A DNA stretch of 64,000 nucleotides, from IMG/VR virus record IMGVR_UViG_3300024999_000083; one strand, written 5' to 3'. This stretch comes from a virus. This document shows positions 56,310-62,133 of the stretch, in pieces; the stretch's first letter is position 1; each line of letters begins with the position of its first letter. The notes under the pieces are model-generated. The model was not told where the DNA came from and did no database searches. It saw nothing but the letters and a program-made list of their open reading frames with translations. The translations under genes were made by a program, and so were the position numbers.

Positions 56310-56924
56310 CTATATTGCGGTTAGGAGTTGATTTGATTTTATGTAATCATCGTAGTACATCCATTTGAGAGGTTCGTTGGTAATTGGGTGTTTCCCTGCG
56401 TATTCACTAATTCCTCTACAACATGAACATATGCCACTGCTGCTAAATATACCATATTTCTTACGAGCATCTGTTTGTGACTTAAATATCTCCCCTGTAT
56501 TTAAGCATATTACTTTTTTACTACGTCTCTCACTAGTTAAAGCATATTGTTTTTCTAATTCTACTTTAGCATCATAATCGCACCATTTTAATTCGACTCC
56601 CTGTTTTAAATATTTTCTAACGGATGTTGTGCTAATTTTTAATTGTTCGGCTATTAATAGTGTGTTTTTTAAACCATTTTCCCATAAATCACAAACTGTT
56701 TTAACCAAACTACTACAAGCATATTTGTGGCATTTTAACCAATCTATATCTGATTCCTTAAAATTAAATAATTGTGGTAATTCTGAATTCATAATGCTAT
56801 TCTTTATGTACTTCCATTCAGATTTTAAACTATCAATTCTTATAATTTTTACATTATTTTCTCTACACAGTCTATCTTTTTCATCATCAATATATTTAAC
56901 ATTTTCTTTAGTTTTATCAAACAT
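56310..56924 (-). CDS. homing-endonuclease-like protein (HTH plus NUMOD-like DNA-binding motif)
   Basis: ISTTSVRKYLKQG (HTH) and KVICLNTGEIFKSQTDARKKYGI (NUMOD-like) motifs. Confidence 0.35.
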   Translation of the reverse strand: MFDKTKENVKYIDDEKDRLCRENNVKIIRIDSLKSEWKYIKNSIMNSELPQLFNFKESDIDWLKCHKYACSSLVKTVCDLWENGLKNTLLIAEQLKISTTSVRKYLKQGVELKWCDYDAKVELEKQYALTSERRSKKVICLNTGEIFKSQTDARKKYGIFSSSGICSCCRGISEYAGKHPITNEPLKWMYYDDYIKSNQLLTAI

Positions 56925-57877
56925 TTTAATATTCTTTGTATGAAATCCCCATCCATTTCAACTCCATATTGTTTTGTGTTTATTTTAAAATATAAGTCTA
57001 TCCTGCCTTTATGCAATTCTTCTTTATATTCATATTTCAACCAACTAAAAGATTTCTCCGTTTTGAAATCTTTGATTATTTTTAATTTTCTTATTTGTTC
57101 CATAAAATTAAATCCAAATTTATTAGGATAACTAATTCCGTCACTACATTTATTACAACCAAAACCATGCCTTACTAATGTGTCAAATGACAATTCTTTT
57201 TCGTACCCACATTCTGGACATTTCGTAGGTATATTAATTCCAGAACCTTTTGAATATTTCTTTGAGTCGTCTTTATTTATTAAGAATATATCTAAATATG
57301 GATTGGTTACTGATACTGAATTACATAATTTACACTCAAGACTCCTCCTGCTATGTGTAAAACAACTTATACTTTTCAATTCAGATTCATGTTCTGGGTG
57401 ATCAAGGCACTTAAACCAATAACCTTGTTTTTCATACCCACCAGAACTATAACTAACGTCTTTAGGACTTAACATATTGCCTTTTCTATCAACATTTAAT
57501 TCATAATCCCATCTGCTTAATATGTAGTCTGCCAATTCTTTAAGTAGATTTTCATAACACCAATCGTAAAAAGATAGACTATTTTTTAATCTTGATTTTC
57601 TATAGTTTTCAGATCCATATAAAACTATAGCACAGTTATTACAATAATATGTTCCGTCTTCTTTTACGCATTTTTTATAATCTTTCCATTTTACTTTCTT
57701 TAACTTACCACATTTGTTACATTCAACTTCAACTGATATATTAGATCCATTTTGCAAATCTTCGATTTTAACTTCAAATTCATCTTTAAACTTTGTAAAT
57801 GCGTGACCCTTTCCTTCATACCATTTTTTATTGTTTGAATGCCATTTAACGTAAAACTCTTTTGTCAATAATCCCAT
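56849..57877 (-). CDS. multi zinc-ribbon protein
   Basis: At least five CxxC pairs (CNKCGK, CNNCA, CKLCNS, CPECG, CNKCSDG). Confidence 0.45.
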   Translation of the reverse strand: MGLLTKEFYVKWHSNNKKWYEGKGHAFTKFKDEFEVKIEDLQNGSNISVEVECNKCGKLKKVKWKDYKKCVKEDGTYYCNNCAIVLYGSENYRKSRLKNSLSFYDWCYENLLKELADYILSRWDYELNVDRKGNMLSPKDVSYSSGGYEKQGYWFKCLDHPEHESELKSISCFTHSRRSLECKLCNSVSVTNPYLDIFLINKDDSKKYSKGSGINIPTKCPECGYEKELSFDTLVRHGFGCNKCSDGISYPNKFGFNFMEQIRKLKIIKDFKTEKSFSWLKYEYKEELHKGRIDLYFKINTKQYGVEMDGDFIQRILKCLIKLKKMLNILMMKKIDCVEKIM

Positions 57878-57977: not shown

Positions 57978-58145
57978 TAATACTTAAAACTTTTCATAGT
58001 TTCATTATCTACAAGAAATCTGATTTGATGTCCACATTTTGAACAAGAAAATACTCCAATTGCATTTCCAGTAGTTGGATTATAACTGATATTTGATGGT
58101 TTATATAGTATTTGACACGTTTCACAAATTATTAAATTTCTCATA
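57978..58145 (-). CDS. small zinc-ribbon protein (about 55 aa)
   Basis: MRNLIICETCQ...CSKCGHQ; coordinates approximate. Confidence 0.3.
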
Positions 58146-58469
58146 ATACGCTCCTTTGCTTGTGCGTTTTGTAATTTATTTCGTGGTCGTTTGAAACGTC
58201 CTCGGATTATATATATGCGAAATATTATTTATTAACGTTTGTCTAATTATTTATTAACGTAAATTTACACTCACCTAAAACTAGACCAATTTCCACATCT
58301 AATATCTATTGGTTCAAACACATACATAAATCTTCTTCTCTTGTTAAATATAATTGATATTTCCTTTAATCCTTTGTGTTTCCCATGTTTATGAAACCAC
58401 ATTCCTTTATTTCTAATTTTTACGGCAGTTTTAGAATTCATAGAACACCACATCCTTTTATTAATTTAA

Positions 58470-58646
58470 TCAAATCCATCTGGTTCTCTCTTTCAAATAA
58501 ATCAATATCAATCCTACTCCTATATTGCATCCTGCCAATAAATATTTTCCATTTACAATATTGGCAATAGCATTAACTCCACCAAATATTATCCAAAAAG
58601 TTAATTCTTGTTTGTAAGTTAATTTTCTTAATTTCATATATTCCAT
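58470..58646 (-). CDS. small two-TM membrane protein just downstream of cas12f (coordinates approximate)
   Basis: MEYMKLRKLTYKQELTFWIIFGGVNAIANIVNGKYLLAGCNIGVGLILIYLKERTRWI, translated by hand from the minus strand. Confidence 0.3.
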   Translation of the reverse strand: MEYMKLRKLTYKQELTFWIIFGGVNAIANIVNGKYLLAGCNIGVGLILIYLKERTRWI

Positions 58647-58684
58647 CACTTTCTTCTAAAATTTTACTTATATGCAATTACAAT

Positions 58685-60013
58685 CTAACTAACCTTCTTA
58701 TCCTTAAACTTACTCATCATCTTCAGTTGCTCCACAATAATACTATCAATCATAGGAATGCTAATATTCTTGGCGGCATTTATATCTGCATTTTCTTCAT
58801 GTCCACATGTAACACACTTAAACTTTGCCTGATTACTCTTACAATCTCTATTAGCATCATCTATACATCCACAATGACTACATCGCTTGCTTGTGTACTT
58901 TGGGTCAATCAAAATAAATTTAATACCCTTTTCTTCACATTTATACTTAGTTTTATTTTGGAGATCAAAATATGACCAATTCTTTAAAAATTTCTCAGAT
59001 TGTTGTTCTGAAAATCCACTTAGATTTTCCATTTGAATAGTTCCACAATTGTATTTTAATGCAGTATCAACTATATTTTTGCTAACTTTATGATTATATG
59101 TATCTCTAAATTTTCCAACTTTGTCTCTCATTTTATCTACTGGTTTTAATCTAACTTTCCTACCATGTCCTATTCTTCCGTTGCCAACTATTTTACTAGC
59201 AATATACATTTGTTTATTTCTTGCTTCAATCTTTTGCCGATAATGTATTAATTCACTACCATTAATTTTGCATTCTTTCCATGATATTCTATCCCATTTT
59301 TCTGTAGAAATATCAAATACTTGCATTGTTGCAGTATTCACAATTCCTAAGTCAACTCCTAATACTTTATTCATATCCAATTGCCTTACGACTGGTTCAA
59401 AACTAAAACTAATTATAAGATACCATTTGCCTCTTTTATCTTCAATAATTTGTGCTGATCCTTGTTTATATATACCTAAGATTATCTTATTTAATATTGA
59501 TTTCCTACTATTGTCCAAACTATCAATAAGAAAACTTACTCGTTTTATATCATTTTCTTTTTGATATTTAAGATTAAATAAACTGCATTTTACTTCGAAC
59601 CCTTTATTTCCTTGAGTTATCGTATAATTCTTATTATGGACAATGAGTGGAATACTCTGTTTAAAATTTGATAATGATACCTGACCTTTAAATAGTCCTT
59701 TTTTAATATCGTCTTTAAATCTATTACTTACAAATTGTCTAGTTTGAGCTACATTGCCACTATTATGTATATTCATAACTTCATTCATTCTGTTCTCTAC
59801 CCAAGATCCATGACTCTTACCATATCTATCTTTTTCATTTATAGTAGTACCATTCATTTGTTTGTGTTCCATATTTTCTACAGCAAAAGTGTAACAATAT
59901 GTTATTGCTTTATTTGAAGCTAACCATGATTGATATCTCAAATCTTTCAGTGTTTGTTTATAATTGCTTATTTCATTACAATTTTTTATTGCGATTTTAA
60001 TACATTTATTCAT
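58685..60013 (-). CDS. cas12f: Cas12f-like (type V-F) miniature RNA-guided nuclease
   Basis: RuvC-I LGVDLGIVN; RuvC-II CGTIQMENLS; Zn finger CSHCG...CVTCG; RuvC-III ENADINAAKNIS; long collinear similarity to AsCas12f1 as I remember it (WYLNISYDFEP/WYLIISFSFEP; GTIQMEDL/GTIQMENL; IDPQYTSQRCSECG/IDPKYTSKRCSHCG); sits next to the CRISPR array. Confidence 0.9.
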   Translation of the reverse strand: MNKCIKIAIKNCNEISNYKQTLKDLRYQSWLASNKAITYCYTFAVENMEHKQMNGTTINEKDRYGKSHGSWVENRMNEVMNIHNSGNVAQTRQFVSNRFKDDIKKGLFKGQVSLSNFKQSIPLIVHNKNYTITQGNKGFEVKCSLFNLKYQKENDIKRVSFLIDSLDNSRKSILNKIILGIYKQGSAQIIEDKRGKWYLIISFSFEPVVRQLDMNKVLGVDLGIVNTATMQVFDISTEKWDRISWKECKINGSELIHYRQKIEARNKQMYIASKIVGNGRIGHGRKVRLKPVDKMRDKVGKFRDTYNHKVSKNIVDTALKYNCGTIQMENLSGFSEQQSEKFLKNWSYFDLQNKTKYKCEEKGIKFILIDPKYTSKRCSHCGCIDDANRDCKSNQAKFKCVTCGHEENADINAAKNISIPMIDSIIVEQLKMMSKFKDKKVS

Positions 60014-60080
60014 AATATCTCATCATCCTTTTATATGATTCGTTTTATATGAAAAATAATACTTCCACACCTAGTATAAG

Positions 60081-60622
60081 TCTCGTATCTTATTGTATAC
60101 ACAAGTTTTAACAATAAAGAATAATGCTTAAGTGTTTGCCGGACATCTTGCATCATATATGTATATACAAGTTGTAACGAGGAATTTGAATTATAACTGG
60201 CTCACGGTCTTTCTTACATTCTTATACATATATGCAAGTCGTAACAAACCATGGTCTTGCTGTTCAACTTCTTGATTCTTGCAAATTGTAACGATCACTC
60301 ACCAGTGATTCAAAATTATCCCCTAGTCTTACAACTTATATGTATATGCAAGTTGTAACTTGATATTTCACCTTTAAACGCTCCAATAAGTCTTACACAT
60401 TATACATATATACAAGTTGTAACTTGTTTAATAGAAGCAAAGTATAAATCCAAGCATCTTACATCTTATATACATATACAAGTTGTAACGTAATGGTAGA
60501 TTTTCAGCTTCTTTTATTCGATCTTCTTACATCTTATATACATATACAAGTTGTAACTCTCGGAGAATTCGGAACTGAAGAGATACAAATCTTACATCTT
60601 ATATACATATACAAGTTGTAAC
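60081..60622. CRISPR. CRISPR array of about 9 repeats, consensus CTTACATCTTATATACATATACAAGTTGTAAC (32 nt)
   Basis: Near-identical repeats at 60328, 60392, 60458, 60526 and 60591; degenerate copies at 60081, about 60145, 60213 and about 60261; unique 32-36 nt spacers (one 15 nt next to a degenerate repeat). Confidence 0.85.
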
Positions 60623-60639
60623 TGCACCCCTCTACAAAC

Positions 60640-60830
60640 CAATCACACCAACCATTACAACTCATAAAAATGCGAACATATTAAATTATTACAACTTGAA
60701 TATACATATAAGATGTGCTGACGGTATTTGTGCCAGCAGTTTCAATAGGTGCGAATGTACTAGTGTTCTTATGTATGCTTATCATTCGCATTATTCCCAT
60801 TACCTTATCGAGAGCAATTCAACCTTATAA
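60640..60830. ncRNA. tracrRNA-like element: anti-repeat plus three hairpins
   Basis: 60688-60717 ATTACAACTTGAATATACATATAAGATGTG approximates the reverse complement of the repeat; hairpins TGCTG..CAGCA, GCGAATG..CATTCGC and CCTTAT..ATAAGG follow. Confidence 0.5.
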
Positions 60831-61084
60831 ATAAGGATTTACAAACCCTTCTTCGATTCATAGGCCACTAAGTCTGCCTTTATTTGAATTGTGATTGTGA
60901 ACTTAATAATTTACTTATGTACAAACTAACTACATTCACTAATTTACAATTTTCATCTCACCACATCCTCTTGTTAAAATATTTATTTATTACTTCAACC
61001 TATAACCAGTTTACCATAAGTGGAAATGCTTGTCAAGTTTTAACTTTGTAAACTTTATTTATCAATTTAATTACCTCTAATCCT

Positions 61085-61294
61085 TTAAATTTTACAAATA
61101 GATTTCATTATTTCCTCCGACTTTTTCTTATCTTCTTCAATTTCCATTTTCCATTTGATAATCTCTTTTTCTGATTCAAACATCAGTTCTCGTTGTTTGT
61201 TTATTTCATTTAACATCTCTTGCTTACGATCTTTTAGATTTTTCCCATTAATGCGTATGCCTATGTATCTCACTCCCATAATCATTTCTCTCAC
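61085..61294 (-). CDS. hypothetical charged coiled-coil protein
   Basis: ORF. Confidence 0.35.
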   Translation of the reverse strand: MREMIMGVRYIGIRINGKNLKDRKQEMLNEINKQRELMFESEKEIIKWKMEIEEDKKKSEEIMKSICKI

Positions 61295-61392
61295 CTCACT
61301 TCCTCTTGTCTCTACTATACCACACCGACTACTTCAATGTCAAATATTTATTTTACAATTTATACAGAAGAAAGAGGAAAGGGAATTATTTA

Positions 61393-61857
61393 CTATTCCC
61401 TCGCATTGCCCATCTCTGCTTCAGACTCTTCCTTCATTCTCAAAGACATTTTAGAAATCATATCATCAGATATCTTTCTAATTTCAATCCATTTTTCTAA
61501 ATCTTCATTTGCTTTAATCATGTCTCCAATATCACCATTGGCAATAATTGAATAGAAGTTACAATATTCTTTGTATTGATCTTCAGTAAAGGAAAATTGA
61601 TTATCCCCTTTAGTTACTTTATGCTCTTGTATCGGCAACTTATATCCCAATACCTCATATTTAATTCCAATTTCAGTATTCTCATCCTTTACAAAATCAT
61701 AAGGTACATCAAGATATCCTTCAATTACATCCTTTATTGCATCTTCAATCATTGGTTGATTATCTTTTGGAAATTCATCAAGATCAAATACTTTAGCCGG
61801 ATCAATTTCAACCTCTAATATTGCAGTCATAATAAGCTTTACTCTTGCTTTTGTCAT
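61393..61857 (-). CDS. hypothetical acidic protein
   Basis: ORF. Confidence 0.5.
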   Translation of the reverse strand: MTKARVKLIMTAILEVEIDPAKVFDLDEFPKDNQPMIEDAIKDVIEGYLDVPYDFVKDENTEIGIKYEVLGYKLPIQEHKVTKGDNQFSFTEDQYKEYCNFYSIIANGDIGDMIKANEDLEKWIEIRKISDDMISKMSLRMKEESEAEMGNARE

Positions 61858-61875
61858 TTAAATCATTCTCCTTAA

Positions 61876-62133
61876 CTAATTTTTATGATCATAATTAATC
61901 ATTGGTGATTTTTCAATTACTTTAGTTATTTCGCCAACATTACCTTTACCATCATCTTCTATAATTACATATGAAATTTGAAATGTTGGGTCATTCTTTA
62001 AAAATTCGGTAGGATCATTTGTTATTAATTTGTTAAAATCCTCAATAATTTCAATAGTGTTTGAAGTTAAAGACTCTGGGATAATCATATCCATTGTTGA
62101 TGTTAGGGTATATCTTACTCTTTTCTGTTTCAT
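61876..62133 (-). CDS. hypothetical protein (short paralog of 62188-62676)
   Basis: RYTLTSTMDMIIPE...NTIEIIEDF...DGKGNVGEITK matches RYTLTATIDLVIPH...NVIEIVENF...DGKGNVSKMTK. Confidence 0.5.
   Translation of the reverse strand: MKQKRVRYTLTSTMDMIIPESLTSNTIEIIEDFNKLITNDPTEFLKNDPTFQISYVIIEDDGKGNVGEITKVIEKSPMINYDHKN

Follow-up and report, generated by a model that had tools for sequence, protein, structure and literature searches.

The closest described counterpart of the system reported here is AsCas12f1, a miniature CRISPR effector from Acidibacillus sulfuroxidans (PDB 7WJU, 8J12, 8J1J and 8DZJ), whose trans-activating CRISPR RNA (tracrRNA) was defined by RNA sequencing and whose single-guide RNA is given in Supplementary Table 3 of Bigelyte et al. 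2021 (PMC8548392). The related locus that we analysed lies in a stretch of 64,000 nucleotides (nt) of the IMG/VR virus record IMGVR_UViG_3300024999_000083 (hereafter the window) and consists of a cas12f gene, a CRISPR array at 60081-60622 and a putative tracrRNA block. The strand and the 5′ end of such an array fix the form of the guide RNA, the side on which the protospacer-adjacent motif (PAM) lies on the target and which spacers are recent; knowledge of this polarity is needed to rebuild the 442-amino acid (aa) nuclease as a single-guide tool or to read the record of its targets. With high confidence, and on the strength of sequence comparison, we read the window locus as an AsCas12f-like type V-F1 system with all of its parts on the minus strand, in the order promoter, tracrRNA, leader, array and cas12f. 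This polarity is the one that AsCas12f predicts; it is useful for annotation and unsurprising, and it does not overturn current understanding.

The likeness to AsCas12f1, the nearest solved structure (PDB 8j1j/8j12/7wju), covers nearly the full length of the effector (E ~1e-88, residues 20-431) and includes a long tracrRNA with the same order of motifs, an anti-repeat 2 nt after the same hairpin, a tracrRNA followed by the array, and, ahead of the spacer, ~6 nt of repeat tail with complementarity to the first hairpin's loop. In layout the two systems differ, as the AsCas12f1 tracrRNA lies between cas12f1 and the array (PMC8548392), whereas the window has the order tracrRNA-array-cas12f. They also differ in the repeat:anti-repeat duplex, which is a near-continuous AU-rich helix of 28 base pairs (bp) in the window and two short segments in AsCas12f1; in a hairpin that reads GCC-AAAA-GGC there and UGCGAAU-28 nt-AUUCGCA here; in their setting, a bacterial chromosome as opposed to a phage-like element with a low guanine-plus-cytosine (GC) content; and in the repeats, which in the window are heterogeneous within one array.

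The Clostridia-type OsCas12f1 and RhCas12f1 (PDB 9nzq, 433 aa), for which only the effector was compared, belong to the same size class and clade (E 6.8e-76); they come from Firmicutes-type loci and use a T-rich and a C-rich 5′ PAM, respectively (PMC10090079), beside which the flank evidence of the window amounts to one CTTC(A). Un1Cas12f1 (Cas14a, also type V-F1) shares with the window the miniature effector, the long tracrRNA and the form of CRISPR RNA (crRNA) predicted for the latter, a 5′ handle with a 3′ spacer, but it is distant (E ~1e-25, in the C-terminal half), and Cas14a loci come with Cas1, Cas2 and Cas4, unlike that of the window. CasPhi (Cas12j), a type V effector of phages, is not known to require a tracrRNA. 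Phage-encoded type V systems, among them CasPhi and the Cas12p 'hacker' (bioRxiv 10.1101/2025.01.20.633832), resemble the window locus in their compact Cas12, small phage arrays, lack of adaptation genes and presumed targeting of rival elements, but they belong to other Cas12 families, whereas the window effector is a bona fide Cas12f1 relative.

Strand and order of the locus

The initial annotation had placed the leader on the tracr-proximal side and the direction of transcription on the minus strand toward cas12f, arguing from the decay of the repeats. Both statements are supported by evidence that is independent of this decay, namely a sense-only match to the AsCas12f1 tracrRNA, a wobble bias, the flank of one spacer target and the arrangement of sister arrays. 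A profile built from 16 loci in the cas12f sense matches the AsCas12f1 tracrRNA in the sense orientation only, with no match on the opposite strand. The match is made of two collinear segments (model 28-85 to As 31-84, 8.5 bits; model 142-181 to As 95-134, 6.4 bits). Taken absolutely, these nhmmer scores are small, but of 1000 shuffles that preserved dinucleotides none rose above 2.5 bits. Shared with the AsCas12f tracrRNA are CGAGAAGUG, CUCG(A/G)UAAGGUA, UGAAAC with a 6-bp hairpin (loop ACAAA(U/G)ACC), AC and the anti-repeat, which in both lies near the 3′ end of the tracr block. The block (~60884-60689) is conserved down to ~45% protein identity, always upstream of the gene and in the same orientation. 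With a block of ~200 nt, an anti-repeat and the AsCas12f1 match, the locus appears to possess the long tracrRNA expected of type V-F1.

Helices of the tracrRNA were drawn by hand for the pairing counts, in place of an unbiased stem scan. In these helices, 87.9% of the cells are paired, compared with 30-40% when the partners are slid, and 12 pairs show double-sided changes, compared with 4.9 in shuffles; such compensatory changes across loci point to purifying selection on the structure. The cas12f-sense strand is favoured by the wobbles both in the tracr helices (37 G.U versus 11 A.C) and in the repeat:anti-repeat duplexes of 16 loci (78 G.U versus 36 A.C), the cells counted not being independent of one another. 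The unbiased scan, run on both alignment strands for conserved stems of 4 bp or more, returned mostly short G.U-rich stems due to chance and gave no distinction between the strands. Single-sequence folding energy was uninformative for both strands of the tracr block (z +0.43 and +0.35), RNAalifold recovered only 20 pairs from the gappy 16-locus alignment, and Rfam gave no match of meaningful score. Because the repeat is partly palindromic, complementarity to the anti-repeat does not by itself decide the strand.

In our model, the parts read on the minus strand are, in succession, a promoter region at ~61008-61036, the tracrRNA (~60884-~60666), the leader (60665-60623), the array (60622-60081) and cas12f (60013-58685). 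The sequences show the anatomy, conservation, strand and order of these parts; the tracrRNA ends, a joint transcript of tracrRNA and array, processing and growth at the tracr end are deductions. With minus-strand transcripts, an anti-repeat near the 3′ end of the tracrRNA and a spacer 3′ of the repeat, the precursor crRNA (pre-crRNA) begins 5′ at 60622 and ends 3′ at 60081, beside cas12f. From the tracrRNA homology, the wobble bias and the mismatch pattern of one spacer, we infer a crRNA with a repeat-derived 5′ handle, which would form a duplex of ~28 bp with the anti-repeat, and a 3′ spacer. The last bases of this handle, (G)UAAG, are complementary to the CUUA loop of the first tracr hairpin (AGGCAG-ACUUAG-UGGCCU) and probably pair with it by analogy with AsCas12f, where the counterparts are UGAAC and GUUCA; in two of the related loci (designated here by L numbers), L027 and L036, the repeats end in CAAG, matching a loop CUUG. 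In a joint tracr-array transcript, the anti-repeat and the first repeat are predicted to fold on each other.

Order and turnover in related arrays

Wherever related loci still have the region, down to 45% protein identity, the arrangement on one strand is the same: tracrRNA, anti-repeat, an interval of 63-66 nt, the repeats from first to last, and cas12f. The most decayed repeat copy in typical arrays is the last one, on the cas12f side, and never the first (L001, L005, L013, L036 and L018/L019). In the distant homolog L044, the eighth and last repeat copy is the degenerate one. L044 was dropped as an instance of a simple AsCas12f-like order, its scaffold modules being reordered with no obvious anti-repeat before the array, and it was used solely for the degeneracy of its last repeat. 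In L042-L045 (38% identity), an RNA scaffold and an eight-repeat array are found downstream of the gene (for example, L044 3435-4109), and a copy of the UGCGAAU...AUUCGCA hairpin stands right after the stop codon.

Sister arrays differ by single units. L019 has exactly one repeat and spacer more than L018, placed at the leader junction; the repeat copy is identical, and so are the flanks (100%). At this junction L005 likewise exceeds L001 by one unit. L010 and L028 have the cas12f-end spacer in common and a different first spacer. None of the window spacers is shared with the fetched related loci, even at 94-95% protein identity, so the window array cannot be polarised by direct comparison with a sister.

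In three related arrays (L017, 2217-2446; L126, 1637-1938; L007, 926-1090), a different repeat variant occupies every position. The changes concentrate in the central (UA)n and include length variants, and the ends GTTACAA and AAGATGTAAG are kept. Arrays in which every repeat differs are unusual for CRISPR; this heterogeneity is in keeping with an array that lacks a Cas1-Cas2 of its own and with a guide whose distal repeat:anti-repeat helix is little constrained. With repeats heterogeneous along whole arrays in relatives, repeat decay alone is weak evidence of polarity. What sets the window array apart from its relatives is the identity of its first three repeats.

Repeats and spacers of the window array

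On the minus strand, which is the cas12f sense, the repeat unit reads GTTACAACTTGTATATGTATATAAGATGTAAGA (33 nt). Nine copies of 32-34 nt each (R1-R9, counted from the tracr side) stand at a start-to-start spacing of 64-68 nt bar one short interval, are separated by spacers (S1-S8) of 31-35 nt, the truncated S6 apart, and end 68 nt upstream of the cas12f start codon (Table 1).

The edit distances from R1 are 0, 0, 0, 4, 4, 12, 5, 4 and 8 along the array, and the distances from a consensus built solely from other loci, with the window array excluded, are 3, 3, 3, 3, 5, 13, 4, 5 and 9 (Spearman rho 0.80, p 0.01, n 9). The repeat alignment that the initial annotation had called for shows that the gradient is real and is carried mainly by R6 and the terminal R9. 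That annotation had described five nearly identical repeats at 60328-60622; the description is exact for R1-R3, and R4 and R5 depart from it at 4 of 33 positions each. It had also placed four multiply changed copies on the cas12f side. Their placement was correct, but only R6 and R9 are truly degenerate, R7 and R8 being intact variants, like R4 and R5, in which 24-27 of the 28-29 aligned positions pair with the anti-repeat (Watson-Crick plus G.U). The spacer that it had given as truncated to ~15 nt (60246-60260) measures 14-15 nt.

Six of the seven well-pairing repeats keep the tail GUAAGA, and R8 has GCAAGA. In R6, the first 13 nt (GTTACAATTTGCA) and the AAGTTGAA block survive and the 3′ tail has become GAACAG; with this tail, and with the ACGAGA of R9, the UAAG that could bind the first tracr hairpin in its loop is lost. 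The minimum spacer for AsCas12f and SpCas12f is reported as at least 16 nt (PMC8548392), and S6 is shorter. R6/S6 and R9 are probably dead, and the seven other repeat-spacer units probably still yield working guides. The 1101 nt from upstream of the tracr block through the array to the cas12f start are base-for-base identical in three assemblies from other samples (L122, L123 and L125), which makes the degenerate copies real and stable and not an artefact of assembly.

A promoter-like TTGAAT-17-TACAAT at 60285-60313 (minus strand) spans the end of S5 and the mutated start of R6. Its TACAAT arises by a C-to-T change in GTTACAAT, and the site could drive cas12f from within the array.

Target of spacer S4

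When seven spacers were probed individually in viral contigs, only S4 had a match and six had none, among them S1, S2, S3, S5 and S7 as exact probes; whole-array searches of isolate phage and plasmid collections returned nothing significant, chance matches at most. In L128, a viral contig from a sample of the same series as the window, the gene for a minor head protein (phrog_115, 9e-59) agrees with S4 at 29-30 of 31 nt; in L129 the agreement is 30 of 31 nt. Each flank on the 5′ side, in the sense of the spacer, contains TT (GCTTC(A) and TCTTC(A)), and mismatches occur solely at spacer positions 30-31. As the window holds no homolog of this head gene, the target is an unrelated phage. To go by the S4 match, the phage-like element appears to direct its miniature Cas12f against a rival phage of the same sample series, by way of that phage's head gene.

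Leader, promoters and transcription

Directly upstream of R1, the segment 60623-60688 is conserved in related loci, as expected of a leader. Its anti-repeat-proximal part is probably the 3′ tail of the tracrRNA, by analogy with AsCas12f, in which the tracrRNA runs 23 nt beyond the anti-repeat (PMC8548392). The initial annotation had also located a promoter within 60623-60690, and this part of it is not supported: a scan of the minus strand of 60623-60688 found no sigma-70-like site, the first 23 nt probably belong to the tracrRNA, and the segment is G-rich and does not look like an AT-rich leader with a promoter, its GC content being 35% (44% for 60623-60665) as against 29% in the window. An interpretation of the leader as a fossil repeat followed by a conserved 'spacer 0' that acts as a natural guide was rejected, there being no anti-repeat complementarity upstream of GAGTTGTAAT; elsewhere in the window, the 43-nt leader has only 11-nt chance matches. 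In the group of loci with GTTACAA repeats, the distance from the anti-repeat to R1 is 63-66 nt (for example, L001 4645-4708, L010 2208-2271 and L126 1573-1636), a length that stays fixed despite sequence drift in the R1-proximal half.

The site at 61008-61036, the strong conserved one nearest to the array, lies upstream of the tracrRNA and is a candidate promoter for it, possibly for tracrRNA and array together. L001 (4195-4321) and L010 (1760-1883) have a conserved pair of strong promoters on the sense strand, upstream of their tracrRNA. In the window, the scan confirms only the tracr-proximal one; the distal site, within 61085-61294 on the minus strand, was read by eye and would precede a 69-aa open reading frame (ORF) that is degenerate in L001. 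L002, L007 and L008 have neither promoter, and in them another gene, ending in a hairpin, stands right before the tracrRNA. No terminator was predicted between the array and cas12f, nor anywhere within 61100-59900. As a tentative working model, to which we give somewhat less than an even chance, a single transcription unit would cover the tracrRNA, the array and possibly cas12f; processing would then fall to a host double-strand-specific RNase.

In the RNA sense, TTCGCA occurs twice, inside the tracrRNA and in the 3′ tail before the U-run (window 60671-60677, 60750-60756 and 60784-60792), and both copies can pair with a nearly invariant UGCGAA. The tail copy is itself nearly invariant and is paired by RNAalifold with an upstream AUGCGAA; one position of this distal pairing shows some covariation (A-U 6, G-C 5, G-U 1 and A.C 4). 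This distal pairing could be a second way for the RNA to fold, a terminator stem of long range or a pseudoknot.

Table 1. Features of the Cas12f locus and related positions (window coordinates unless a contig is named)
Feature	Position	Strand	Remarks
Promoter-like site	61008-61036	-	TTGACA-17-(TG)TAAACT; ~125 nt upstream of the tracr block; conserved in L001 and L010
tracrRNA body (putative)	60717-60884	-	Covarying helices; motifs common to AsCas12f tracrRNA (CGAGAAGUG, CUCGAUAAGGUA, UGAAAC-hairpin-AC)
Anti-repeat	60689-60716	-	Against positions 2-29 of R1-R3: 25 Watson-Crick, 2 G.U, 1 mismatch
tracrRNA 3′ tail (probable)	60666-60688	-	AAUUUAAUAUGUUCGCAUUUUU; conserved TTCGCA, then U-run; by analogy with AsCas12f
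Leader proper	60623-60665	-	G/U-rich, 43 nt, 44% GC; sequence conserved in relatives of at least 68% protein identity
R1	60622-60590	-	Identical to R2 and R3; leader-proximal 5′ end of pre-crRNA
S1	60558-60589	-	Between R1 and R2
R2	60557-60525	-	Identical to R1 and R3
S2	60490-60524	-	Between R2 and R3
R3	60489-60457	-	Identical to R1 and R2
R4	60423-60391	-	Variant, 4 substitutions
S4	60390-60360	-	Sole spacer with a protospacer found
R5	60359-60327	-	Variant, 4 substitutions; 26/28 Watson-Crick pairs with anti-repeat
S5	60326-60293	-	After R5 in RNA sense
R6	60292-60260	-	Full-length, heavily mutated, 12-13 edits; 9 Watson-Crick + 3 G.U of 28 with anti-repeat
S6	60246-60259/60260	-	Truncated, 14-15 nt
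R7	60245-60212	-	Variant, 4 substitutions and a 1-nt insertion
S7	60211-60179	-	After R7
R8	60178-60146	-	Variant, 4 substitutions; tail GCAAGA
S8	60145-60113	-	After R8 in RNA sense
R9	60112-60081	-	Terminal degenerate repeat, 8 edits from R1 including a deletion; tail ACGAGA
Array trailer (cas12f 5′ flank)	60014-60080	-	Ribosome-binding site AAAGGATGA; 25% GC
cas12f	58685-60013	-	442 aa; AsCas12f-like, type V-F1 (formerly V-U3)
S4 protospacer	L128 5074-5103	minus	
S4 protospacer	L129 149-178		
DUF4379 protein	56849-57877	-	
DUF4379 protein	L123 4106-5134		
DUF4379 protein	L127 3480-4541		
DUF4379 protein or RVT_3 ORF	L126 3406-3867		

Age of the repeats and alternative readings

With the order promoter-tracrRNA-leader-array-cas12f, the three identical repeats at the tracr end would be the most recent units, the copies toward cas12f, variant or degenerate, would be older, and R9 would be the usual decayed last repeat. 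The identity of R1-R3 and the exactly one unit by which L019 exceeds L018 are the reasons to consider that the array, though it lacks a Cas1-Cas2 of its own, still gains units at its tracr-proximal junction, through a borrowed host adaptation complex or by another route, an idea that we regard as rather unlikely, if worth stating. If the array did grow in this way, the fixed G/U-rich junction of 63-66 nt would be the tracrRNA 3′ tail or terminator combined with an integration or processing signal, and tracrRNA and pre-crRNA would be made as one transcript.

Several observations weigh against parts of this account. Deletions between repeats could produce the differences between sister arrays, including the one-unit differences of L019/L018 and L005/L001, so growth at the leader end is not proven by them, and the extra repeat of L005 differs from its neighbour at 5 positions. 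The heterogeneity along the whole of L017 and L126 makes 'decay equals age' an unsafe rule in this clade. The tracrRNA profile scores are low, and S4 is one spacer with two homologous targets, which supports the orientation and does not define a PAM. To the missing sigma-70-like site upstream of R1 can be added that TGGTATGAT, conserved in some relatives, is replaced by TGGTGTGAT in the window and five others; as an extended -10 promoter it is unlikely, because the essential second-position A of the hexamer is G in these six.

Some of these points would also suit a polarity as stated with a gradient that is no record of age, in which repeats drift everywhere, R1-R3 result from recent local duplication or gene conversion and the leader is no acquisition site. 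The repeats of L017, L126 and L007 are heterogeneous throughout, and the leader-end repeat of L005 is unlike the next; the differences between L010 and L028 are best explained by deletions, no Cas1, Cas2 or Cas4 is found among the 76 window ORFs, and against the independent consensus only R6 and R9 stand out. We nevertheless consider it improbable, since R1-R3 flank three unrelated spacers, which excludes a simple tandem duplication of one unit, since terminal-repeat decay is tracr-distal in the typical arrays of several lineages, and since the extra unit of L019 sits exactly at the junction, with an identical repeat copy between identical flanks.

Transcription of the array on the plus strand, from a leader on the cas12f side (60014-60080), would yield crRNAs with ...CAAGUUGUAAC and would make the degenerate copies leader-proximal. 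The cas12f-proximal flank is indeed the poorer in GC (25%, tracr-proximal 35%), weak plus-strand promoter-like matches (9/12) occur at 60096-60125, and the partly palindromic repeat is compatible with either strand; those matches, however, sit in non-conserved spacer sequence. A plus-strand transcript would match the AsCas12f tracrRNA in the opposite sense only, run contrary to the wobble bias and place the anti-repeat at the 5′ end of the tracrRNA, an arrangement not reported for Cas12, in which the spacer is 3′ of the handle (PMC8548392). The mismatches of S4 would moreover fall in the PAM-proximal seed, next to a flank of AACA or AATG. Together, these points make the plus-strand reading very improbable. 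Hardly credible at all is a decaying relic, in which array and tracrRNA are disused and cas12f acts in a TnpB-like manner. It could account for the two dead units (R6/S6 and R9), the lack of adaptation genes, the single spacer with a known target and the database label 'transposase/TnpB' of the relatives, but seven of the nine repeats keep 24-27 of 28-29 pairs with the anti-repeat and six keep the GUAAGA tail, the catalytic and zinc residues are intact, compensatory changes occur in the tracrRNA from locus to locus, four assemblies carry the identical array, and S4 matches a phage contig of the same sample series over 29-30 of 31 nt. What remains best supported by these comparisons is the minus-strand, AsCas12f-like order.

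The cas12f gene and its carrier element

We assign the locus to the AsCas12f-like type V-F1 family as a further member; the phage-like element that carries it has no Cas1, Cas2 or Cas4 in the window. Its effector has the miniature size (about 400-550 aa), split RuvC and C-terminal zinc ribbon of this type. Further marks of the type are a homodimer of the effector on one guide RNA and a 5′ PAM on the non-target strand, T-rich in AsCas12f1 and OsCas12f1. The window protein has RuvC residues D221, E329 and D410 and zinc-ribbon residues C378, C381, C400 and C403, none of which varies in 20 homologs, and it matches Pfam Cas12f1-like_TNB (PF07282; 2.7e-21) as well as the PADLOC models Cas12u3 (1.2e-119) and Cas12f (1.6e-118). 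The array lies beside the effector gene, in a layout found in at least 16 related loci. TnpB systems of IS200/IS605 elements are characterised by a single guide RNA (omega-RNA) that overlaps or follows the 3′ end of the gene, without a CRISPR array; the window instead has a scaffold RNA and a nine-unit array upstream of the gene, and the TnpB-type NCBIfam and Pfam matches of cas12f are due to shared ancestry.

The window also encodes DNA polymerase III alpha, ribonucleotide reductase, RecD-like and RecJ-like proteins, a DnaB-like helicase, dUTPase, a ParM-like partition protein and several HNH endonucleases, and resembles the section of a large phage or phage-plasmid that serves replication and nucleotide metabolism. 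Near 50 kb, both gene orientation and GC skew flip. Positions 58000-62000 had no match in the isolate phage collection; the relatives reside on IMG/VR viral contigs of 47-139 kb. A DUF4379 treble-clef zinc-finger protein (~342-353 aa) recurs shortly downstream of cas12f, and in L126 and L127 an RVT_3 (RNase H-like) ORF directly follows cas12f.

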